In this document: positions 998 through 37,788 of the stretch, piece after piece
How the letters are laid out: every line of letters starts with the position of its first letter
Position numbering within the stretch: the first letter of the stretch is position 1
Position numbers and translations under genes: made by a program
From: a virus
Taxonomy: Duplodnaviria; Caudoviricetes
Virus record (IMG/VR): IMGVR_UViG_2602041664_000001
Span: 18,872-82,871 of that record
Length of the DNA: 64,000 bases
Reading direction: 5' to 3' (one strand)
Notes under the pieces: model-generated
The model's database searches: none
Told to the model about the DNA's origin: nothing
Seen by the model: only the letters and a program-made list of their open reading frames with translations

Positions 998-1032
998 TGT
1001 CCTAACTAAAATATAACGTTTAATTATCTTTG
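998..1032 (+). promoter_or_regulatory. Phage-type promoter TGTCC-N22-TATCTTTG
   Basis: Bacteroidetes -7 box with TGTCC starting 27 bp upstream; same spacing at 10 loci. Confidence 0.7.
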
Positions 1033-1036
1033 CTAT

Positions 1037-1441
1037 ATGAAAAGAATGGCAATCAAATACAAGGTGCAGCATCGACGCTCACAGGTGTCTGGTAAGCATT
1101 ATGCTTCTTTAGCTGCTGTCTCTAACGGACGTATTTCTTTAAGCGACCTTTGCGAGGATGTAGCCTCTAAGTCGCACATGGAAGCTCACGAGATTCGTGG
1201 CGTTATGGAACGTCTGGCAAGTCGTGCGCAAACACTTCTCTCTCGTGGTTTTCGTGTAGAGTTTGGCCCTGTCACTATCTTTCCAAAATCGTCTGGTACG
1301 CTTACCGATACTGAAACGCACGCTGCTACCGCTGACGACCTCTCGGTGGTGAAAGCAAAGACTACGCTCGGTGCTACCGTCTCCCGAAAGTTTACACGTG
1401 ACTTTGCAGAAGGTTGTAACTGGCAGAGGATAGACGAGTGA
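1037..1441 (+). CDS. HU-related (Bacteroidetes histone-like) DNA-binding protein, paralogue 1
   Basis: Y-A-x(n)-GRISLSDLCEDVASKSHM...LSRGFRVEFGPVTIFP pattern; true start may be ATG 1046. Confidence 0.8.
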   Translation: MKRMAIKYKVQHRRSQVSGKHYASLAAVSNGRISLSDLCEDVASKSHMEAHEIRGVMERLASRAQTLLSRGFRVEFGPVTIFPKSSGTLTDTETHAATADDLSVVKAKTTLGATVSRKFTRDFAEGCNWQRIDE

Positions 1442-1609
1442 TGCAGAAAGAGGTGATAAGTAGAACTATCTTTAATCCAGAAACGGGGGGGGGTAGTAAG
1501 AATACTTAAAGCGAACTATTACAAGATGGGTCATCGGAACTTTCTGTTTCGTTCTGATGGCTTTATCGCATCTTGTGTACTGAGTGAATATAGTTTTGAG
1601 AATTTTTGA
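1441..1609 (+). pseudogene. TRD-like mini-ORF U1, out of frame at a G9 tract (1485-1493)
   Basis: With G8 it reads MQKEVISRTIFNPETGGVVRILKANYYKMGHRNFLFRSDGFIASCVLSEYSFENF; ATG overlaps HU stop (TGATG). Confidence 0.65.
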
Positions 1610-1754
1610 TAAAAAGACACTATTACCTATCTGTGTAACTGTTGATAATTGTGTGGTAACACTTGTCTCCAGATATGGTAATATGGATTGGTCTAATCTT
1701 ATAGGTACACAGCATTATCCTATGACTGCTGTAATGGTTGAATATGATTTGTAA
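1584..1754 (+). CDS. TRD-like mini-ORF U2 (56 aa)
   Basis: ...ICVTVDNCVVTLVSRYGNMDWSNLIGTQHYPMTAVMVEYDL; clearly similar to T4 (3490-3687). Confidence 0.6.
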   Translation: MNIVLRIFDKKTLLPICVTVDNCVVTLVSRYGNMDWSNLIGTQHYPMTAVMVEYDL

Positions 1755-2547
1755 CTTTGTTGGTTGGACACGTGACGATAAAGGAAAGGTTCTAAACAGG
1801 CACTTTAAGGATATTTGTAATACGATTACTTCCAAGGCTGGTAGAAATGGTAATACCTCTCCTTTTGTGTGCATTAGTAATAATAATTCTAATAAAAGTA
1901 TGATTGCAAAGATTTATCCTGACGGGCATCCTGACTTGTTGGGAAAGAAAGATCCAACGCATCCTGTGCGTTATTTCGATATTCGTAAATTGACGCCGAC
2001 TGAATGCTTTCGTTTGATGGGTGTAAGCGATAATGATATTGAGAAGATTTTGCAAAGCGGACTGAGTAAGTCAGCTTGCTATAAATTGGCTGGTAATTCT
2101 ATCGTTGTTGATTGTCTCTACTATATCTATCGTAATATATGGCTGACCGAAGACGAACAACCACGGACGGGTGATGTTATGAGCTTGTTTGACGAACCTA
2201 CTTTTCGTGCTCCATTACCTAAAACTATCAATATGGTTACGTTATGTTCAGGTTATGATTCGCAGTGTTTAGCTATGCAACGTCTTATTTCAGATGCTAA
2301 ACAGCAGGGCTATGATGTGACGTTCGACTTGAAGGCGTGGAGTGAGTTCGACCCTGAAAGTCGTTCTGCCTTGGAGAAACAACCGGCGGTTGTGGCACAC
2401 AACTCTCTTTTTCCTCAGTTTGCTGACCGTAACGTGGGTGATATGACCAAAGCAGATTGGTCGTTTCTGAAGGGTGAAAATATTGATTTGCTTACCTATT
2501 CAACTCCTTGCCAGTCTATTCTCAAGCGGGAAAGCGGACAGGGATAA
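1744..2547 (+). CDS. Circularly permuted DNA (cytosine-5) methyltransferase, 5' part (TRD, motifs IX-X, I-IV)
   Basis: RKLTPTECFRLMG (IX), YKLAGNSIVV (X) precede TLCSGYDS (I) and LLTYSTPCQS (IV, catalytic PC). Confidence 0.85.
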   Translation: MICNFVGWTRDDKGKVLNRHFKDICNTITSKAGRNGNTSPFVCISNNNSNKSMIAKIYPDGHPDLLGKKDPTHPVRYFDIRKLTPTECFRLMGVSDNDIEKILQSGLSKSACYKLAGNSIVVDCLYYIYRNIWLTEDEQPRTGDVMSLFDEPTFRAPLPKTINMVTLCSGYDSQCLAMQRLISDAKQQGYDVTFDLKAWSEFDPESRSALEKQPAVVAHNSLFPQFADRNVGDMTKADWSFLKGENIDLLTYSTPCQSILKRESGQG

Positions 2548-3026
2548 AACGTGATAGCGGTACACGTTCATCTGTGTTGTGGTACACAGAGAATGCTATT
2601 CGTGCCTTGCGTCCTAAGTTTCTCTTACAAGAGAATGTTCGTGCGTTGGTTAACAAGATTAATGTCGATGATTTCAAGGAATGGCAGAAGGTATGCCAGG
2701 ATTGTGGCTATACGAATTATTGGACTATTATGAATGCAAAAGACTTTGGTGTTCCACAGAATCGTGAACGTGTCTTTATGCTTTCAGTTCGTAATGACTT
2801 AAATCTCCCTACTTATCGTTTTCCTAAACCTTTCCGTCTCGACAAAGCTATTGTTGATATTCTTGAGGAGGATGTGAATGAATCTTATTTCTTAAAGCCA
2901 GAGAGCGTTCTTAAGTTCTTCGAGGCTAATGAAAAGCCAGAAGATGCAGGTATTCATTATCTTGTAACCGATCATAAGCTGTCAGATGTGGAGATTGCTA
3001 ATGTGCGTGGTGCTGAAAAATCGTAG
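2508..3026 (+). CDS. C5 methyltransferase 3' part (motifs V-VIII), -1 frame relative to the 5' part at ~2520
   Basis: SQAGK...RSSVLW, LLQENV (VI), MNAKDFGVPQNRERVF (VII-VIII); one extra T at 2520 gives continuous PCQSISQAGK. Confidence 0.85.
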   Translation: MPVYSQAGKRTGIKRDSGTRSSVLWYTENAIRALRPKFLLQENVRALVNKINVDDFKEWQKVCQDCGYTNYWTIMNAKDFGVPQNRERVFMLSVRNDLNLPTYRFPKPFRLDKAIVDILEEDVNESYFLKPESVLKFFEANEKPEDAGIHYLVTDHKLSDVEIANVRGAEKS

Positions 3027-3183
3027 GACTGACGAGGGCAAGGCTGTTCGTCGTTTGTATGGCGACAACAGTGGTATGTGTCGCTTTGCAGATAGACAGC
3101 TTTTCCCCTCGTCCGCTTGTTGGTCGAATACTGTTACTGGTGTTGATAAGGATAATTTGATGTTGGTGGAATATGATCCGTAG
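3001..3183 (+). CDS. TRD-like mini-ORF T1
   Basis: RRTDEGKAVRR...WSNTVTGVDKDNLMLVEYDP; start may be 2986 or 3001. Confidence 0.65.
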   Translation: MCVVLKNRRTDEGKAVRRLYGDNSGMCRFADRQLFPSSACWSNTVTGVDKDNLMLVEYDP

Positions 3184-3331
3184 AGATAATATTTGTGTTG
3201 TCGGTCTTTTGCCGTTTATAACTTGGTTTAGACCTGATCGTGTAGTTCTTTCTGTAGAAGGGGTTAGTACTACCTTACAGACGCAGATGAACTCTAAACT
3301 TCAGAAAATATTAGTAGAGTATGACTTGTAG
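3173..3331 (+). CDS. TRD-like mini-ORF T2 (52 aa)
   Basis: MIRRDNICVVGLLP...RVVLSVEGVSTTLQTQMNSKLQKILVEYDL; ATG inside GAATATGA of T1. Confidence 0.65.
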   Translation: MIRRDNICVVGLLPFITWFRPDRVVLSVEGVSTTLQTQMNSKLQKILVEYDL

Positions 3332-3503
3332 AGAAAAAACTATTCGTGCAAAGTGGTTGCCAAATGGAAATATCCGTTTCTTTAGGGATGACGATAAGAA
3401 GAGTGGGGTAGGTGAGCTTTGTTGTACCGCTTGTTGTAATCCTTCTGCGACAGTTATCCGTGGTGTTGTGGGTTGTGTTATTGTTGATTATGAATTTGAT
3501 TAG
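3321..3503 (+). CDS. TRD-like mini-ORF T3 (60 aa)
   Basis: ...NGNIRFFRDDDKKSGVGEL...PSATVIRGVVGCVIVDYEFD; ATG inside GAGTATGA of T2. Confidence 0.6.
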   Translation: MTCREKTIRAKWLPNGNIRFFRDDDKKSGVGELCCTACCNPSATVIRGVVGCVIVDYEFD

Positions 3504-3687
3504 TCTTTGCTCGACGGCTGTTTCCGTTCCTAAATTTCTTTTTTGGGGTCAAATGGCTGCTGTGAATGTTTGTACGGGTAATGTCGCTTGTACGCTAAAT
3601 ACTCGGTATGAGTATATGGGTAAAAGTGATTTCCTTTCTTTAGTGCATTTCCCTAAGACTGTGGTTTTGTGTGAATATGATATGTAA
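3490..3687 (+). CDS. TRD-like mini-ORF T4 (65 aa)
   Basis: VNVCTGNVACTLNTRYEYMGKSDFLSLVHFPKTVVLCEYDM; ATG inside GATTATGA of T3. Confidence 0.65.
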   Translation: MNLISLCSTAVSVPKFLFWGQMAAVNVCTGNVACTLNTRYEYMGKSDFLSLVHFPKTVVLCEYDM

Positions 3688-3904
3688 CTGTCCTGTTTTG
3701 TACGTTCGTGACGTGCGTCCATCCGATTCCTCTTCGCCTGTACGTATTAGTGCGAGTCGTGGACGTAACCCGTCATCTCCTAAAAAAAGGGCAAGGAGTG
3801 GAGAAACGTTCTTGCAGTTTGTTGAAATAGGTAGTGGCGTGGTTACGAATACGATTACTTCTGTTTCTAAAGATAACTGGTTATGGATAGAAAAAGACTT
3901 ATAG
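3677..3904 (+). CDS. TRD-like mini-ORF T5 (75 aa)
   Basis: ASRGRNPSSP...VTNTITSVSKDNWLWIEKDL, typical phage C5-MTase variable-region repeat. Confidence 0.7.
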   Translation: MICNCPVLYVRDVRPSDSSSPVRISASRGRNPSSPKKRARSGETFLQFVEIGSGVVTNTITSVSKDNWLWIEKDL

Positions 3905-4023
3905 GTACATCCGTTCACCCTTTATCCCATAAAATAGAGTGGAGTGGGTGGCTCTCACATTCGCCCGCATTACGCTCGACGGATTACAAATGTCCGCATT
4001 GCTTGGTATTTGAATATGAATAA
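3883..4023 (+). CDS. TRD-like mini-ORF T6 (46 aa)
   Basis: MDRKRLIGTSVHPLSHKIEWSGWLSHSPALRSTDYKCPHCLVFEYE (hand-translated). Confidence 0.6.
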   Translation: MDRKRLIGTSVHPLSHKIEWSGWLSHSPALRSTDYKCPHCLVFEYE

Positions 4024-4174
4024 AGGAAATGTGTCTTTGATAGTCTTGGGGAGATATTCGCCTTCTCAAAATGGTGTAATCGTATCTCCCCTTGGTCTGT
4101 CTCCTTGCATTGTTGGTGGAGATACCGGGCATGATACGGACGTACCGAAGATTTTGTGTGAGCGTGATCTGTAG
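4016..4174 (+). CDS. TRD-like mini-ORF T7 (52 aa)
   Basis: LIVLGRYSPSQNGVIVSPLGLSPCIVGGDTGHDTDVPKILCERDL; ATG inside GAATATGA of T6. Confidence 0.65.
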   Translation: MNKGNVSLIVLGRYSPSQNGVIVSPLGLSPCIVGGDTGHDTDVPKILCERDL

Positions 4175-4177
4175 GTT

Positions 4178-4212
4178 TGTCCCACATCGTTGTTTTTGTT
4201 TTCCTATCTTTG
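4178..4212 (+). promoter_or_regulatory. Phage-type promoter TGTCC-N22-TATCTTTG
   Basis: Exact 27-bp offset between TGTCC and the -7 box. Confidence 0.7.
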
Positions 4213-4260
4213 TATCGTCTTCTATTGGAATTGTCCTTTGGAGAATGAAAAAGTATTGGT

Positions 4261-4830
4261 ATGGTTTCACGATTTGATAATATACTTGAACATTGGGCAC
4301 AAATTTATCGTCCGCTTTCGCATAACCCAGAAAAGGGCAGCAAGGAGAAAGCTTTCTATCGCATTGATACTATCAATACGCAGAATGAATTTGTGCGCAA
4401 TGTTAACACCGCTGCTTCACCAGCTTTGGCTTACTCGTCTTTGATAGATGCTGAATTGCACGACTCTTTGAAGACGGTTCATTATCGACATACGTTATAT
4501 TTCCTTGCTAAACAGCCTCAGGTATCGCTGGCTAAGTCGGCAAAGCAGGACGATGATAATGCTGCTGCTCTGAAGGTTGAAATGGACGAGTGGGTGAATG
4601 ACTTGCTTATATGGTTGTTCTCTGTTCGTAGGAAAGGGAAATGTCCCATAACTGGCAAGGTGTTTAGTGATGTTGACTTACAGGCTTTGCGAGGATTGGA
4701 TTTAGATAATGCTTCGTGGGCAACTATTCCTATGATGTATAATGGTTGGTGGGTGTTGGGCTTAGAACTTAACCAGGTGTCTCCTCGTAAACAGTGCATT
4801 GAAAATGAACGCTATAAGAAACTTCTTTAG
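4261..4830 (+). CDS. Hypothetical protein, possibly tail completion/terminator-like
   Basis: 189-aa ORF behind a putative late promoter; function is a guess. Confidence 0.6.
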   Translation: MVSRFDNILEHWAQIYRPLSHNPEKGSKEKAFYRIDTINTQNEFVRNVNTAASPALAYSSLIDAELHDSLKTVHYRHTLYFLAKQPQVSLAKSAKQDDDNAAALKVEMDEWVNDLLIWLFSVRRKGKCPITGKVFSDVDLQALRGLDLDNASWATIPMMYNGWWVLGLELNQVSPRKQCIENERYKKLL

Positions 4831-6478: not shown

Positions 6479-6886
6479 ATGAACAAAAACTTAAAATCCA
6501 TGAAGCTTTGCTTTGTTGTAGAGATACTTTTATTATCTTCAGCGAATATCTTAGCTTTGCTTTTTATGGATAGTATATATATAAAGATAGGAATGGCGAT
6601 GTATCTTTTCGTTATTTTCTTCTTTATGATCCTTCCTGTTACACGTAAGAATACAGATGAAGAAATGGGTTTCTTTTTAGGAAGGCTTTATGATAAGTCA
6701 TATCTTACTGAGATAGGAACACAAATAGCAATTACGATAGTGTTCTATTTGTTCAGTTTCTTATGGTCTTTGCTTCTTTTTGCAGTTGGATTTCACTTGC
6801 TGTGGACTTTTGCTTTGCTTATTGAAGTTGTTGATAAGTGGATTTATTCTAAGTATAATCAAGAACGTGAGGAAGATAAAGTATGA
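6479..6886 (+). CDS. Membrane protein (about 4 TM helices)
   Basis: Long hydrophobic stretches. Confidence 0.7.
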   Translation: MNKNLKSMKLCFVVEILLLSSANILALLFMDSIYIKIGMAMYLFVIFFFMILPVTRKNTDEEMGFFLGRLYDKSYLTEIGTQIAITIVFYLFSFLWSLLLFAVGFHLLWTFALLIEVVDKWIYSKYNQEREEDKV

Positions 6887-7797
6887 GCATCTTTGATGTG
6901 AAATGTAGCGTTTATCGTTCGGCTAAGGATAGGATAGGAACTGGTGATATGACGATTGCTGAGTTTCTACTTGGTGAACGTTGGAAGGAACCTGTCTTAA
7001 GGTTACGGGACATGGTGGCGGAGTATGGTCCACTTGAAGCAAAAATGCACGAGGACTATAAGCTGACTAAACAGCAGTTGCCAGGTGCTACGCTTTCTGG
7101 ATTATTCTCAAGGCGTAAAGGTGATTGCTTGATACAGCACACAGGCTTTGTTGCTATAGATATTGACCTTGGAGACAACACAAGCATCGGTAACTTTGGA
7201 ACCATTCTGCGCACTCTTCGCCATCGTGCCGAGGTTGCTATGTATATGCGTTCATGTTCTGGTACAGGATATTTCGCTTTGATACCGTTGGCATATCCTG
7301 AACATCATAAGGAACAGTTCCGTGCTTTACAAAAGGAATATGCAGCGATGGGTATAGTGCTTGATAATGCTTGTAGCGATATAACCCGCATCCGCTTTGC
7401 TTCTTATGATGAGCATCTTTATGTTAATGAGCAGGCTATTCCTTATATGGGAGTGGATTTAGGAAGCCAAACACTCGCTCCTCGTGCGGCTGTTTATGGT
7501 GGTCATGTTGATAGTATGGATAGTAAGGTTCAAGCCGTTGAAACTTTGGTCTCAAAGTTAGAGATGCACCATATAGACATTACTGATAGCTATAATGATT
7601 GGTATCGCATTGGCTTTGCTTTGGCAAATCTTCCTAATCCAATAGGCAGGCAGATGTTTCACCGTGTTTCAGCTATATGCAAAAAGTATAATCCTCAAGA
7701 ATGTGATAAAAAGTTTGATACATTACAACGTCCTGAAAAGATAGGGTTAGGAACTTTCTTCCATATCTGTGAGGACTATGGTATAACTCTTAAATAA
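6883..7797 (+). CDS. VirE N-terminal/BT4734-like plus PriCT-2 primase-associated protein
   Basis: KQQLPGATLSGLF, FVAIDID, SCSGTG, DNACSDITRIRFASYD; C-terminal YNDWYRIGFAL...KYNPQECDKKF...IGLGTFF. Confidence 0.85.
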   Translation: MSIFDVKCSVYRSAKDRIGTGDMTIAEFLLGERWKEPVLRLRDMVAEYGPLEAKMHEDYKLTKQQLPGATLSGLFSRRKGDCLIQHTGFVAIDIDLGDNTSIGNFGTILRTLRHRAEVAMYMRSCSGTGYFALIPLAYPEHHKEQFRALQKEYAAMGIVLDNACSDITRIRFASYDEHLYVNEQAIPYMGVDLGSQTLAPRAAVYGGHVDSMDSKVQAVETLVSKLEMHHIDITDSYNDWYRIGFALANLPNPIGRQMFHRVSAICKKYNPQECDKKFDTLQRPEKIGLGTFFHICEDYGITLK

Positions 7798-18402: not shown

Positions 18403-19677
18403 ATGGCAAAAGCAGAATTTATTGGTCTTCACGCACTGACTCACATTGCTGATCAGTTCGCACCACAGATTATCATGGGTGCAAGCTACTTCCGTCCTGA
18501 AGAGATGGACCGCCTGCACATTAAGGTGATTTCTGGTATTCAGTTCCGCAACACTGCAACGGTGATGGCTCGTAAGGGCGGTACCACTCGACGCAAAGTT
18601 GTTGGCAAAAAGGTTGATAATCCTATTGGCTTCTTGAAGGAGCGTGTTCTTACAGCTAAGCTGACTATGAACCGCTTCAGCGACAATCAGGATAACTATG
18701 TTGAGACACCTTACCAAGTGGAAGGTAGTTCAGACTACAGCTATCCTATGTCAGAAGCAGCATTCAAGGCTATCACCGCTACCTATGGTGAAGACTTGTT
18801 TGCAAACCTCTTCCATGGCGATCTTGCCAATGATGAGAACGGAGAGAAGGGTGCTCTTTCTTTGTTCGACGGCTTCCTGACTTGCATTAAGCATGATGTC
18901 GAGGATGGTCTTATCAGTGAAGCAATGGGTAACCTTGTTAACTGTGATGCTATTACTGCTCCTACTTCATCTACTGACACCGCAGCTTGGGACGCTTTTT
19001 GTGCATGGCAACAGAAGTGGAATGGCTCATTGAAGAACCAGCTCAAGGTCATTGTTTACTGCTCTACTAAGACAGGAACGGCTTTAGCGAGAGCATACGC
19101 TAACGTTTGGCACGGCAATCAAGGTGTAAGATACCTTCAGGTGAACGGTATCGAAACTTACAACTTTACCGTACCAGAGTACCCTAACATCGAGTTCGCT
19201 CCATCGGATATTTATGGTGAAGGTGACAAGTTGATTGCTACCACCCCAGAAAACTTCCAGTATGGTGTAAACAGCGAAGACAGTCGAAGCAAAATCTCTG
19301 TCAAGTTGGGTAGCGACACTGATAACCTCGATATTACCTTCCAGGTAGAGAGTATTCAGGGAGCTCGTCTCCTTAATCCGTTTGCTTCTGCGTTCTGTAT
19401 GAGTAACGGTACTCTTGTTGAGAAGGTTGTTCTTGGTGACTTCACTCGTGCTATTTTCGCTGTTTCTGCGAATGACGACGCACTTGGTACTGTAACGGTC
19501 AATAGTGCTGCACCAGATCCTAAGAAGGACTACGCTGCTAACGAAACACTTACTTTGAAGGCAACTCCAAAGGGAAGTAATAAGTTCGTTAAATGGAGCA
19601 ACGGTAAGACTACTCCAGAAATCACCGTTGTAACAACTGGTTATCCAGACGCTATTGTTGCGCTTTTCTCTAAGTAA
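18403..19677 (+). CDS. Major capsid protein with C-terminal Ig-like/B-repeat domain
   Basis: Follows protease/scaffold; LSLFDGF motif; C-terminal GTVT...YAANETLTLKATP...FVKWSNG. Confidence 0.75.
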   Translation: MAKAEFIGLHALTHIADQFAPQIIMGASYFRPEEMDRLHIKVISGIQFRNTATVMARKGGTTRRKVVGKKVDNPIGFLKERVLTAKLTMNRFSDNQDNYVETPYQVEGSSDYSYPMSEAAFKAITATYGEDLFANLFHGDLANDENGEKGALSLFDGFLTCIKHDVEDGLISEAMGNLVNCDAITAPTSSTDTAAWDAFCAWQQKWNGSLKNQLKVIVYCSTKTGTALARAYANVWHGNQGVRYLQVNGIETYNFTVPEYPNIEFAPSDIYGEGDKLIATTPENFQYGVNSEDSRSKISVKLGSDTDNLDITFQVESIQGARLLNPFASAFCMSNGTLVEKVVLGDFTRAIFAVSANDDALGTVTVNSAAPDPKKDYAANETLTLKATPKGSNKFVKWSNGKTTPEITVVTTGYPDAIVALFSK

Positions 19678-34833: not shown

Positions 34834-37788
34834 ATGACAGAAGCAAGCGCAAGTAATTATTGGATTAGTTCCACGGCTTTGAGTATAACGCTTAATGCTA
34901 TGGGTGATGCTGACTATATTCAGGCAAATGTAGCCAGTGGTGCTATGATAATGTGTTATATGCGTAACATAGACGGATTGGGCTATGATGCAGGACATAA
35001 CTATCGCCGTTGGAATTTGATAGCCAACCCAACTTATTTCAATTCTACGACCGAGAAATATGTCTATGCTGCTATCCCCCGCAAGCAGCAAGAGAATGGC
35101 ACGGCATTGATTGTGTTCCCTTCTGAGCGTGTTGATATTTATGGTAAGTCAGCCACTGAAGTTCAGCTTGGCTCTGAAGATTATTATTACATCTTCCTCG
35201 GTGGTGTTATCAGTCCTTCGGTTGTTGGCGGTGTGTTGCAAAACAGAACGTGGACACAACGCGTTGATACCGGTAAATTGGCTTCTGACGAAGCTATCGC
35301 TGCTGGCGGTGATAATACTTGGTGGCTCTATAGTGCTGTTGATGATACGGTGACTTTCTTGAAGGCTATTGTTCGTGCCGCATTCGATAATATCGAGGCT
35401 AAGTATGCGACCGTAAAGAACCTTATTATCGGTGGAGAAACTTTGACGGGTGTCGCTAATAATGAAACGCCAAAAAACTCTCGTGTCGACGTGGTTACGC
35501 CTGACTATCTTTTTGGTAATTCTGATGCTCGATATATCCGTAAGGATATTGATGATAGGGTTTCTTCTATACTTACTTTTCTTAATGGCGTTCACTTTGG
35601 CGATGACTTTGAGAAAGATCTTCGTGGTGCTGGCATTTATCGCGACGAACAAGGAAGTTGGCATATCGACACTGATTATATTCACGCACGCAAGAAGCTG
35701 ACAGCAGAAGAGGTGGAGATAATGAAGACCTCCCACATCAAAGGAAAGGTCGTGAACTCTGCTGGCGGCTTTGTCATTTCACGAATAGAGAAGATAAATG
35801 GTGCATGGCGGTGTTTCTTTGTTCAGCAGGATAGTGAAGGGCGTAGGGTGTATAACTCCATGCTTAAGGACGACTTGGCTCTTTGCGAGACGTTTAATCT
35901 TATTGACAATAACGGACAAACAGCTAATCACTACTGGTATAGGCGTGTTACTGCTGTCGGTACTGATTACGTAGATATTGCTGACAATACGAATGTAGAT
36001 TACTATGCGAGTGGTAGCGATGTTCCACAGGTGGGTGACGAGGTTGTGCAGCTTGGCAACCTCACAGTCAAAGAACGTCAGAGTGCTATTATTCAGTCAG
36101 CAGCAGGAGAGGGTAGTCCGTACTTTAAGATTATAAAGGGCATCAATAGTTTTATCCTCCCTGATCCTATCTTCTTATTTGATAAGCAGAACTTCGAGAT
36201 ACGTGTCGAGAACCCAGCTAATCGTGGTGAGTATATCCCTCTGCAAAACTTCTTGGAGACGATGCAAGGACGTCTCAATGCTGTTCAGCAGCAATCAGAT
36301 AAGCAACTGGTTATTTGGTTTGGTGACGTGGTACCAACGCTCACCAGTGAACCCGCTAACGAGTGGACGGACGATGAAACGAAAGAAATGCACGAGCATG
36401 ATGTATATTACAATCGCTCGTATGCTGAAACTGGTGGCGGTCGTGCTTATTCTTTCGAGAAGAATCCAGACGGCTCTTTCTCTTGGCACGAGATTACAGA
36501 TGCTGATGTCCTCAAATCATTAGAAGCAGCAAAGCGAGCACAAGATACGGCAGACGGTAAGCGTAGAGTTTTCGTGCAAGCCGTACCAGTTCCTCCATAC
36601 GATAAAGGCGACCAGTGGAGTAATGCTACCTTCGAAGATAAGTATAACAATGATTTGCTTGTTTGTGTTCGCCCGAAAGCGACTGGCGAGTCTTTCGATA
36701 TTGAGGATTGGACTTCTGCACAACACTACACCACGAAGCAGTTTCAGGCAGAGTTTAACGTGGGGGGAAATAGTATCTCTGCCGTTGTTCGTGACCTTTC
36801 TACAGGTCTTAAGCGTGTCGGATTCAATCTTGACGGTGAGAATAGCACCTTTGACATTGTTGCAGACACATTCAAGGTCACGACTACAACGGGCAAAGTC
36901 CCGTTCTTTACCAGTAACGGAAAGCTAAACGCTTACTTTATTGATGCAAAGTCAATAGTAACTGAAGGCATCAAGGCTCAGACTATCGATGCAAAAGGAG
37001 CTACATTTCAGAATATCACCGTTACTGGTGAAAGTAAATTCGGGGGTGAGCTTGATGGAGCAAGCGGAACATTTAAGGTTCTTAGATGTCTTAACAGCAA
37101 CAGAGAACCTACTGGTGGTATTTATTTTGAGGAAAGAGGAAGCCAAGCTATTATGGCAATTGAGGGCGATTTGGGTATGCGTAAGAACGTTGAGGGAAAA
37201 TTTCGTAAACGCCTGCCACGCTTCTATGCTAAAGATGTTTGGTGTCAAGGACAGTTCGGGCATTATGCTAAGATTTGTGCTGTCGTTAAAGATGATATGA
37301 TGTACGTTCATCATGGTGGGCATATTGAGACAAATGGAGTAAAAGTACAGTTGCCTACCGTAACTGTAAAAAGTGGTGGAAGTGATATCGTCTGCTATAA
37401 AATTCCATTATATGCACCGGGCTATCATGGAGCAGATGGAGATAACGGAGTTGTGAGGGATGTTGATAATCCTGCCTTACATCCGGGTCTTACTGATTTT
37501 GAAAGAGAGATTCCTTATGGTGCTCCTATTGACATGGTAATCTTTAACTGCGAACAACCTCACAGTTATGTCTTCTTTGAAATGGGATATGGCAAAGAAT
37601 GGGTAGTGTTTAATGGCAAAGACAATGTTGAAGTTTATATCTGTGATCATCGAGAGATTAGAAAACTTGATGGTGGTTGGGTGAGTCACTATTTATATGT
37701 TAATCCGTTATGGCTTACTCCATCTAAGAGCAAAGAAACTCCGGGAGCAGGTATTATTTACACAGGTACAGTTGATTTTGACTGGTAA
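34834..37788 (+). CDS. Tail spike/fibre-type structural protein
   Basis: 984 aa; SDVPQVGDEVVQLGN...RQSAII and AQDTADGKRRVF...PPYDKGD motifs of Bacteroidetes phage tail proteins. Confidence 0.75.
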   Translation: MTEASASNYWISSTALSITLNAMGDADYIQANVASGAMIMCYMRNIDGLGYDAGHNYRRWNLIANPTYFNSTTEKYVYAAIPRKQQENGTALIVFPSERVDIYGKSATEVQLGSEDYYYIFLGGVISPSVVGGVLQNRTWTQRVDTGKLASDEAIAAGGDNTWWLYSAVDDTVTFLKAIVRAAFDNIEAKYATVKNLIIGGETLTGVANNETPKNSRVDVVTPDYLFGNSDARYIRKDIDDRVSSILTFLNGVHFGDDFEKDLRGAGIYRDEQGSWHIDTDYIHARKKLTAEEVEIMKTSHIKGKVVNSAGGFVISRIEKINGAWRCFFVQQDSEGRRVYNSMLKDDLALCETFNLIDNNGQTANHYWYRRVTAVGTDYVDIADNTNVDYYASGSDVPQVGDEVVQLGNLTVKERQSAIIQSAAGEGSPYFKIIKGINSFILPDPIFLFDKQNFEIRVENPANRGEYIPLQNFLETMQGRLNAVQQQSDKQLVIWFGDVVPTLTSEPANEWTDDETKEMHEHDVYYNRSYAETGGGRAYSFEKNPDGSFSWHEITDADVLKSLEAAKRAQDTADGKRRVFVQAVPVPPYDKGDQWSNATFEDKYNNDLLVCVRPKATGESFDIEDWTSAQHYTTKQFQAEFNVGGNSISAVVRDLSTGLKRVGFNLDGENSTFDIVADTFKVTTTTGKVPFFTSNGKLNAYFIDAKSIVTEGIKAQTIDAKGATFQNITVTGESKFGGELDGASGTFKVLRCLNSNREPTGGIYFEERGSQAIMAIEGDLGMRKNVEGKFRKRLPRFYAKDVWCQGQFGHYAKICAVVKDDMMYVHHGGHIETNGVKVQLPTVTVKSGGSDIVCYKIPLYAPGYHGADGDNGVVRDVDNPALHPGLTDFEREIPYGAPIDMVIFNCEQPHSYVFFEMGYGKEWVVFNGKDNVEVYICDHREIRKLDGGWVSHYLYVNPLWLTPSKSKETPGAGIIYTGTVDFDW

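Follow-up and report, generated by a model that had tools for sequence, protein, structure and literature searches.

Candidate target recognition modules arrayed as separate small genes around a permuted phage cytosine-5 methyltransferase

The methylase core and its flanking mini-genes

We analyzed a 64,000-nucleotide (nt) stretch of the Caudoviricetes record IMGVR_UViG_2602041664_000001 (positions 18,872–82,871; hereafter, the window), which is part of one 82,871-bp contig, and describe here a DNA cytosine-5 (C5) methyltransferase together with an array of small genes, candidate target recognition domain (TRD) genes, that surrounds it at window positions 1441–4174 (Table 1). The core of the methyltransferase lies on the plus strand and, as the initial annotation had proposed, is permuted: in the match to Pfam PF00145, motifs IX–X stand ahead of motifs I–VIII, with profile positions 269–322 (motifs IX–X) aligned to residues 67–134 of the open reading frame (ORF) 1738–2547, and profile positions 74–204 aligned to the ORF 2508–3026. 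Eight small ORFs (U2 and T1–T7) of 46–75 amino acids (aa) tile around the core; each closes with a hydrophobic pair and E-Y-D/E (or a near variant) ahead of the stop codon. Nine tiling mini-genes had been annotated initially, of which these eight stand, while the remaining one, 1441–1609 (U1), is not a single ORF.

Table 1. Coordinates of the methylase core, the mini-genes, and two neighboring genes in the window.
Feature	Position	Strand	Description
HU-HIG protein gene	1037–1441		Directly 5' of the methylase array
U1 leader	1441..1509	+	ATG at 1441 opens 22 codons, TAA at 1507–1509; G9 puts the leader out of frame with the body
G9 homopolymer	1485..1493	+	Putative slipped-strand switch; sole G-run of at least 7 in the 64-kb window (otherwise only G6 at 36762)
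U1 TRD-like body (..ILKANYYKMG..VLSEY..)	1460..1609	+	No usable start here; extra T near 1603–1607 severs the link to U2
U2	1584..1754	+	GTG start here; ends ..VMVEYDL, stop; continuous with U1 in L002
Core, piece 1	1744..2547	+	ATG within GAATATGA; cis-fused TRD0 (MICNFVGW..CNTITS..), motifs IX–X, I to IV up to ..TPCQS
1-nt deletion in T run	2518..2521	+	TT here vs. TTT in relatives; frameshift in core motif IV
Core, piece 2	2508..3026	+	Remainder of motif IV through VIII and linker (..HKLSDVEIANVRGAEKS, stop)
T1	2986..3183	+	ATG at 2986 or 3001, inside the core 3' end in another frame; ends ..LMLVEYDP, stop; homologue L020:4636–4833
T2	3173..3331	+	Ends ..KILVEYDL, stop
T3	3321..3503	+	Ends ..VIVDYEFD, stop; homologue L016:5486–5785
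T4	3490..3687	+	..ACTLNTRYEYMG..TVVLCEYDM, stop; U2 paralogue
T5	3677..3904	+	..TNTITSVSKDNWLWIEKDL, stop; related to T1 and TRD0
T6	3883..4023	+	..SPALRSTDYKCPHCLVFEYE, stop; sole junction not stepping +1; homologue L029:2693–2821
T7	4016..4174	+	..YSPSQNGVIVSP..GHDTDVPKILCERDL, stop; same module type cis-fused to the C-terminus of permuted core P0133
BT4734-like/PriCT_2 primase gene	6883–7797

The TL-like dipeptide noted earlier in each module is seen as T-[LIV] in U2 (VTL), T1 (NTV), T2 (TTL), T3 (ATV), T4 (CTL), T5 (NTI), and in TRD0, the module fused to the core (NTI). T6 has PAL, T7 has PCI, and U1 has RIL here and RTL in the relative L002. The T-[LIV] dipeptide is conserved in the recognition loop of the TRDs of multispecific C5-methyltransferases. 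Two pairs of modules are homologous, as had been noticed: U2 and T4 (BLASTP E=1e-8, 15/39 residues identical), and T1 and T5 (E=2e-5, 9/18 identical). Reassignment of a stop codon was considered and rejected: 127 mini-ORFs of the window and relatives end with TAA (89), TAG (23), or TGA (15), and the frames obtained by reading through TAG close within a few codons.

The catalytic motif IV (PCQ) is not encoded in one unbroken frame in the window. In six IMG/VR loci with a DNA identity of ~93% (close relatives), the core is intact in all five that cover it (L002–L006), being 427–438 aa long and reading ..TPCQSISQAGKR..; the extra T in motif IV is present in L002, L003, L005, and L006, as well as in contigs of sequencing runs X2, X3, and X5. 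In total, the window differs from the close relatives by three 1-nt homopolymer changes in the system: G9 vs. G8/G7, a T-run of five vs. four (T5 vs. T4), and TT vs. TTT; as a result, U1 is broken, U1 and U2 are uncoupled, and the core is frameshifted. A separate assembly of the probable source run, X1, coincides with the window with zero differences at a contig depth of ~1079, hence the three changes are not assembler slips; sequencing-platform error may be behind them. Intact versions are carried by contigs from three other studies (X2, X3, and X5), and the U1 tract in the contigs of X2 and X5 is one G shorter than in the window; these comparisons were made on contigs of four runs, and contigs drop minority variants. 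Due to the frameshift in the core, the system is most likely off for good in this genome and, as judged from the reading frames, probably inactive.

Comparison of the close relatives, a check proposed in the initial annotation, showed conserved stops (T3–T7) along with variable number and content of modules. The junction stops and frames of T3–T7 are conserved in all of them. The sites varying in T3–T7 are distributed over codon positions 1/2/3 as 34/30/71, and the excess at third positions (71/135) supports the annotated frames. T1 and T2 are absent from L003–L007, where the T3 body continues the T1 leader in the same frame. In L002, T1 carries a frameshift, and U1 (G8) and U2 form a single 110-aa ORF, opened by the ATG that opens the U1 leader in the window; in L003 and L005, both U1 and U2 have given way to unrelated DNA. 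In L006, U2 is lost through a deletion exactly at the E-Y codons, and U2 homologues are free-standing in L017, L022, and L089. The DNA replacing U1 and U2 holds a small unrelated ORF (..EYDSIDDFIDKIKLLRDEIDKF..; L003:2702–2881, L005:2968–3219) with no Pfam match.

This variation could mean that the modules are mostly silent cassettes, with recombination at the junction motif bringing a TRD beside the core, and only the cis or adjacent TRD being used. The content indeed varies among near-identical phages, as seen in the loss of T1 and T2, the replacement of U1 and U2, and the exact U2 deletion; moreover, TRD0 is fused to the core here and is free-standing elsewhere. However, the motif shared by the modules is only ~8–16 nt long, and the modules are all direct repeats, hence recombination between them deletes DNA and is irreversible. 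No recombinase was found in the stretches examined, the search for it not being systematic, and the individual ATG of each module and, in relatives, its own in-frame G-tract design (see below) would be needless if the modules were silent. We consider silent cassettes quite improbable.

Arrays in relatives, G tracts, and junctions

To describe the arrays more broadly, we collected loci around cores 42–82% identical to a TRD-less query core; the set used for motif counts consists of 89 IMG/VR loci and the first 8 kb of the window, with seven loci duplicating other contigs. ORFs with the terminal motif [hydrophobic]2-E-[YWHF]-[DENF]-x0-3-stop are found exclusively on the plus strand (161/6416 vs. 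0/8834 on the minus strand). They number as many as 12 per locus and lie to either side of cores 52–82% identical to the query core, and no array modules are seen at loci with cores 42–47% identical (L036–L084). The layout is thus conserved in many related phages. One array-bearing contig, present both as L108 and as L020, was obtained from a Prevotella isolate in culture, and most other genome matches are Prevotellaceae or Bacteroidales bins.

Modules of the T7 type from phages with diverged cores retain 21 invariant positions of 52. A search with the T7-type profile in 1.84 billion proteins yielded 78 representative proteins, all of 33–166 aa; many of these lie entirely on one side of the tract position, either before or after it. 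The expectation that standard gene callers would miss most of these ORFs did not hold, given 78 representative clusters of T7-like mini-proteins in public protein sets.

Almost every module of the relatives contains a tract of G7–G11 between its leader and its body. The apparent internal frameshifts and lost Met codons of these modules are due to this G-run between the conserved leader and body. Runs of at least six G number 114 inside arrays (59.6 kb) vs. 6 outside (134.7 kb); for C-runs of the same length, the counts are 10 and 1. Runs of at least seven G total 143, of which 85 have a motif ORF within 400 nt. Among these 85 scored tracts, the module is in frame at 32, would be brought into frame by one additional G at 41 and by the loss of one G at 9, and is of unclear frame at 3; a leader-plus-body ORF is obtained at the existing length or at ±1 G in 82/85, other lesions being rare.

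The tract length is polymorphic. L016 and L017 have 223 mismatches per 7087 aligned bases and differ in tract length at 6 sites, at 4 of which only one of the two loci has the module in frame. In four close locus pairs, 16/41 indels fall in G tracts. The U1 tract is G9 in the window (out of frame), G8 in L002 (in frame), and G7 in L006 (out of frame). These are features of a simple-sequence-repeat contingency (phase-variable) locus: a homopolymer within the frame, a length that varies among close relatives, and a toggled frame. The out-of-frame tracts are strongly skewed toward those that need one more G (41 vs. 9 in the arrays of L011–L090), for which contraction bias of slippage, under-calling of G-runs, a –1 slip, or a G added to the RNA are possible causes.

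In T1–T7 of the window, Gly codons at the tract position are mixed (e.g., GGTGGAG in T7), and each module reads through from its junction ATG. By its gene structure, the window lineage is a derived one, in which T1–T7 appear fixed in the on state by interruption of their tracts, TRD0 has become part of the core gene, and a tract remains in U1 alone. The initial annotation had overlooked the G-tract switches, the joining of TRD0 to the core, and the broken state of U1.

The lesions might instead indicate that the array is a decaying remnant, at least here: the pieces of an exploded multispecific gene would have fallen out of use, and the homopolymer changes would be sequencing errors or ordinary mutations that inactivate. 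In the window, 1-nt homopolymer changes break the core, U1, and the U1–U2 link, T1 is frameshifted in L002, T4 is nearly neutral in this lineage, and about one third of tract-bearing modules are in frame, all of which fits decay. On the other hand, phages whose cores are only 52–82% identical have retained the modules together with the stops and ATGs; the 82/85 modules restored within ±1 G mark tract length as the main lesion; and decay does not predict 114 G-runs inside arrays vs. 6 outside, built of GGG where other Gly codons would do. The repetition of the three changes in an independent assembly at ~1079 depth also speaks against assembler slips as their source. Taken together, decay is unlikely.

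The motif GAWTATGA is found at five junctions of the window (1740, 3169, 3486, 3673, and 4012), and GAGTATGA at the sixth (3317), in agreement with the six ATGs initially reported inside GA(A/G/T)TATGA. The window contains 18 matches of GAWTATGA, compared to a shuffle mean of 6.4, and 0/100 shuffles reached 18. The frame step is +1 at all junctions of the window except T5/T6, again as reported, since an ATG inside TAT-GAN automatically falls in the +1 frame. Over 127 distinct junctions, the Tyr codon is TAT in 102 and TAC in 9, against 3559:2021 in long ORFs of the same loci, and the neighboring Glu codon is unbiased (GAA 72, GAG 55); this TAT bias points to selection for the embedded start codon. 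The junction ATG is present in 115/137 modules and opens at least 30 codons in 103/115. An HNH endonuclease gene in the L020 array (PF13392, 25.8 bits) begins at a junction ATG of the same type, hence the junction serves genes that are certainly separate and is an ordinary overlapping stop–start.

HNH endonuclease genes are located within arrays at L020:2377–2736, L011:2258–2575, and L162:5548–5985; the calls are based on PF13392 and PF01844 matches for L020 and L162, and on similarity only for L011. Inteins are present in several core homologues (PF14528, PF13403, and PF14890; P0023, P0031, P0034, and others). The array locus attracts selfish elements of these two kinds.

If the modules were joined in decoding, by +1 or –1 frameshifting, read-through, or transcriptional slippage, nested fused multispecific enzymes would result, as in Bacillus phages. 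The +1 step at all window junctions but one would suit such joining, as would a T1-like module that follows the core's stop in the core's frame, without an ATG, in L015 and L021, and an upstream module in frame with the core across a single stop in L012, L088, and L021; furthermore, 41/50 out-of-frame modules need exactly one G, which could be supplied by a –1 slip on G7 or by G addition to the RNA. However, the +1 step comes automatically with an ATG in TAT-GAN, and the TAT bias argues for initiation; junction frames across loci are mixed (+1, 0, and –1); the table of junction positions reveals no conserved slippery site at the stop codons; HNH and other genes in the arrays use the same junction; and any out-of-frame tract would also remove everything downstream. 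Joining in decoding is therefore improbable.

Identity and proposed working of the modules

Module types of the array occur at the place that defines a TRD, i.e., between motifs VIII and IX or in the permuted equivalent. P0133 carries a T7-type module at its C-terminus, following the motif VIII linker and ending with ..ILLEYE; module types are also found in cis after the motif VIII linker in L102 and before motif IX in L131. TRD0 is fused before motif IX in the window lineage, and a TRD0-type module, ending with ..TTPYILIEYEL and a stop, is free-standing in L013, L016, L017, L022, L088, and L089. In L102, L131, and L162, the array sits between a gene for motifs I–VIII and a gene for motifs IX–X, which is the canonical place of the variable region; the second gene of L162 is a 70-aa ORF with motifs IX–X only. 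These non-permuted split relatives span L131:4438–6992, L162:2295–6175, and L102:4486–6892, and their mini-ORFs bear G-tracts and have variant C-terminal motifs (..VYEE, ..EEYEDDD, and ..EIYD).

The core family is very large (7946/8000 scored candidates at E<=1e-10). Many of the called core proteins (e.g., P0005 and P0006) begin at MIAKIYP, directly N-terminal to motif IX, and thus have no TRD; the same start is seen in the cores of L011, L012, L020, L088, and L021. Other called core proteins have an N-terminal cis recognition domain. For P0053, a natural fusion from the core family, Foldseek matched the AlphaFold2 model to M.HhaI, M.MpeI, and M.HaeIII (E from 1e-14 to 5e-12); the core of the model is good and its TRD part (weak over residues 1–60) is not, so that the fold search confirms the methylase fold only. 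Some cores (P0060, P0063, and P0091) have an acidic, helical insertion of ~120–150 aa between motifs IX and X.

The label TRD, as applied here to the modules, rests on position, cis fusions, and short motifs, and should be read as a putative assignment. The initial proposal of TRDs released as separate genes is upheld as far as a modular library around a permuted core, present in many phages, is concerned; no homology of the modules to solved TRDs was found at the sequence level. In the window and in the relatives examined, stops or frame changes part the modules, U1–U2 of L002 excepted; hence, neither several TRDs in one polypeptide, as in SPR and phi3T, nor the one continuous ORF that would have spoken against separate genes was found. 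The mini-proteins might also be made and play another role, e.g., in regulating or inhibiting the core or the restriction enzymes of the host, as they are very small and have no sequence match or confident structural match to solved TRDs. This is very improbable: the same module types are fused exactly at the TRD position, and many cores would otherwise be without any TRD.

We propose that the array comprises the specificity genes of a modular phage DNA cytosine-5 methyltransferase. The catalytic gene would be circularly permuted (TRD0, IX–X, I–VIII), and each of the small flanking genes would encode one recognition module, in which a short leader precedes a variable body (with a T/A/C-[LIV] dipeptide), and a C-terminal strand common to the modules, made of two hydrophobic residues and E-Y-D/E, is followed by a near-immediate stop. 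The TAT-GAN codons of this strand create an ATG in the +1 frame, at which the next gene would start, yielding a series of separate proteins of ~50–75 aa. Each mini-protein may use its C-terminal strand to dock next to motif IX and the MIAKIYP segment at the N-terminus of the core, i.e., at the place of a cis TRD, and lend its specificity to the core; the phage DNA would then be methylated at many motifs and escape host restriction. In most relatives, the length of G7–G11 would set a module in or out of frame, making each tract an on/off switch of its own, probably a reversible one.

Direct observations comprise the anatomy of the genes, their conservation, the codon bias, and the enrichment and polymorphism of the tracts. 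From these, we infer separate translation, binding in trans, specificity, and reversibility or switching in populations. In our opinion, a moderately probable explanation is that the recognition subunits are free-standing, serve one core in trans, and in relatives are individually phase-variable; it is favored by the own ATG of each module, kept by the TAT bias, the TRD-less cores, the HNH gene at the same type of junction, and the own G-tract of each module. Each of the rival explanations fits fewer observations. Of the three models put forward initially, trans subunits fit best, joining by +1 frameshift found no support, and recombination is seen only as an evolutionary event (the U2 deletion in L006).

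Several observations weigh against trans-acting, switchable subunits. First, 28/137 modules have no Met in the stop-to-stop frame, some of them being startless even after correction of the tract. The share of tract modules in frame, 32/82, is near the one third expected from random frame, and 58/143 G-runs of at least seven have no motif ORF within 400 nt under the pattern used. In a second set of 80 genome loci, motif ORFs number 28 on the plus strand and 10 on the minus strand, and only 4/80 loci have three or more. The search of the mini-ORFs against solved methylases that had been suggested gave no methylase match in PDB (phmmer and hmmsearch; queries T7, T2, and the T7-type profile), the one hit being an unrelated isomerase (E=1.2); Pfam matched 0/8 and PHROGs 0/9 mini-ORFs. 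The AlphaFold2 model of P0133 has a predicted local distance difference test (pLDDT) score below 55 over the TRD part, and the P0053 model is likewise weak over residues 1–60. Finally, constraint in the window lineage is weak, with ratios of synonymous to nonsynonymous changes of 11:26 in T4, 20:19 in T5, and 22:13 in T7, very different from the 46:6 and 61:10 of the flanking genes, and, as the core is frameshifted in this genome, nothing here need be active.

As a tentative extension, which we consider slightly less likely than not, the arrays may provide combinatorial epigenetic bet-hedging in Bacteroidales phages. One core would be served by up to about a dozen TRD-only subunits of ~50 aa, accepted by way of their common C-terminal docking strand and each switched by its polyG tract, giving thousands of methylation patterns per population, which would pass restriction while limiting exposure to methylation-dependent nucleases; in the window, the switches would have been fixed on, and the core then lost. 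If the proposed mechanism is true, this would be the first C5-methyltransferase with DNA specificity on exchangeable TRD-only subunits, and also the first counter-restriction system of a phage in which many on/off switches work independently. It would account for the ability of gut phages to withstand the great diversity of restriction systems in Bacteroidales, assign a known function to hundreds of unannotated small ORFs, and offer a natural plug-in scaffold for programmable cytosine methylation. For annotation, it means that "truncated" or TRD-less cores and "frameshifted" arrays of small ORFs are not to be dismissed as pseudogenes or assembly errors.

The genes adjoining the array (HU-HIG and primase) are of kinds typical for Bacteroidales elements. 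The window is regarded as DNA of a gut Bacteroidales phage. Just 5' of the HU-HIG gene, at 871–977, a 14-nt palindrome, AAAGTGTACACTTT, occurs five times with 23-nt spacing (one copy being AAAGTGCACACTTT), and looks like an operator or a protein-binding array. The contig depth of ~1079 in run X1 refers to window positions 1300–4300 and does not equal copy number; that sample appears to be very rich in DNA of the phage or episome. A distant-mode search of phage GenBank records with region 1000–4400 gave a single, uninformative 180-nt match (70% identity) to an unannotated record.

Comparison with known systems

Multispecific C5-methyltransferases of Bacillus phages (M.SPRI, M.Phi3TI, M.Rho11sI; the SPbeta group) carry tandem TRDs in one polypeptide between motifs VIII and IX. 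The system described here resembles them in having one catalytic framework and several interchangeable TRDs of ~40–60 aa, with one specificity each, and in a presumed role in restriction escape. The difference is that here each module has its own ORF, the modules of a locus, as many as 12, flank a permuted core on both sides, and in relatives they carry a G-tract.

Splits and permutations of these enzymes are both familiar. According to PMC3404938, the variable region of C5-methylases withstands both natural and artificial splitting. M.AquI and M.EcoHK31I, as presented there, are assembled from polypeptides split in or near the variable region, and in this respect resemble the two genes of L131 and L162; however, in these enzymes the TRD stays on the catalytic piece and there are two subunits, whereas here the module would be a third, exchangeable piece that exists in many versions. 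Circular permutation is tolerated as well (PMC5944983): M.BssHII, M.Alw26I, M2.Eco31I, M.Esp3I, and M2.BsaI, all listed there, have motifs IX–X before I–VIII and the N-terminus in the variable region, as does the core of the window. The permuted enzymes listed are single-specificity enzymes of restriction–modification systems, while many of the cores considered here start after the TRD and carry none.

Switching by repeat length also has parallels. In bacterial phasevarions (Type III mod and Type I hsdS), the length of an in-frame homopolymer or short repeat switches a methylation specificity on or off. There, one repeat switches the whole enzyme, or the S subunit, of a bacterial adenine methylase, whereas here up to about a dozen tracts would switch the modules of a phage cytosine methylase one by one. 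In Campylobacter phages (Fletchervirus), hypermutable G7–G11 tracts create subpopulations (Sorensen et al., 2021, as cited in 10.1101/2025.10.21.683753 and PMC12823448); those tracts lie in genes of receptor-binding proteins, in contrast to the methylase modules considered here. The word "methyltransferase" has 0 occurrences in that preprint on phage polyG tracts (10.1101/2025.10.21.683753), and a literature search over full texts without supplements brought up neither arrays of free-standing TRDs nor phage methylase modules switched by polyG. The parts are thus known, namely, multispecific, split, and permuted C5-methylases and phase variation by repeats; what has no known precedent is their combination, above all TRD-only subunits in arrays with individual switches.

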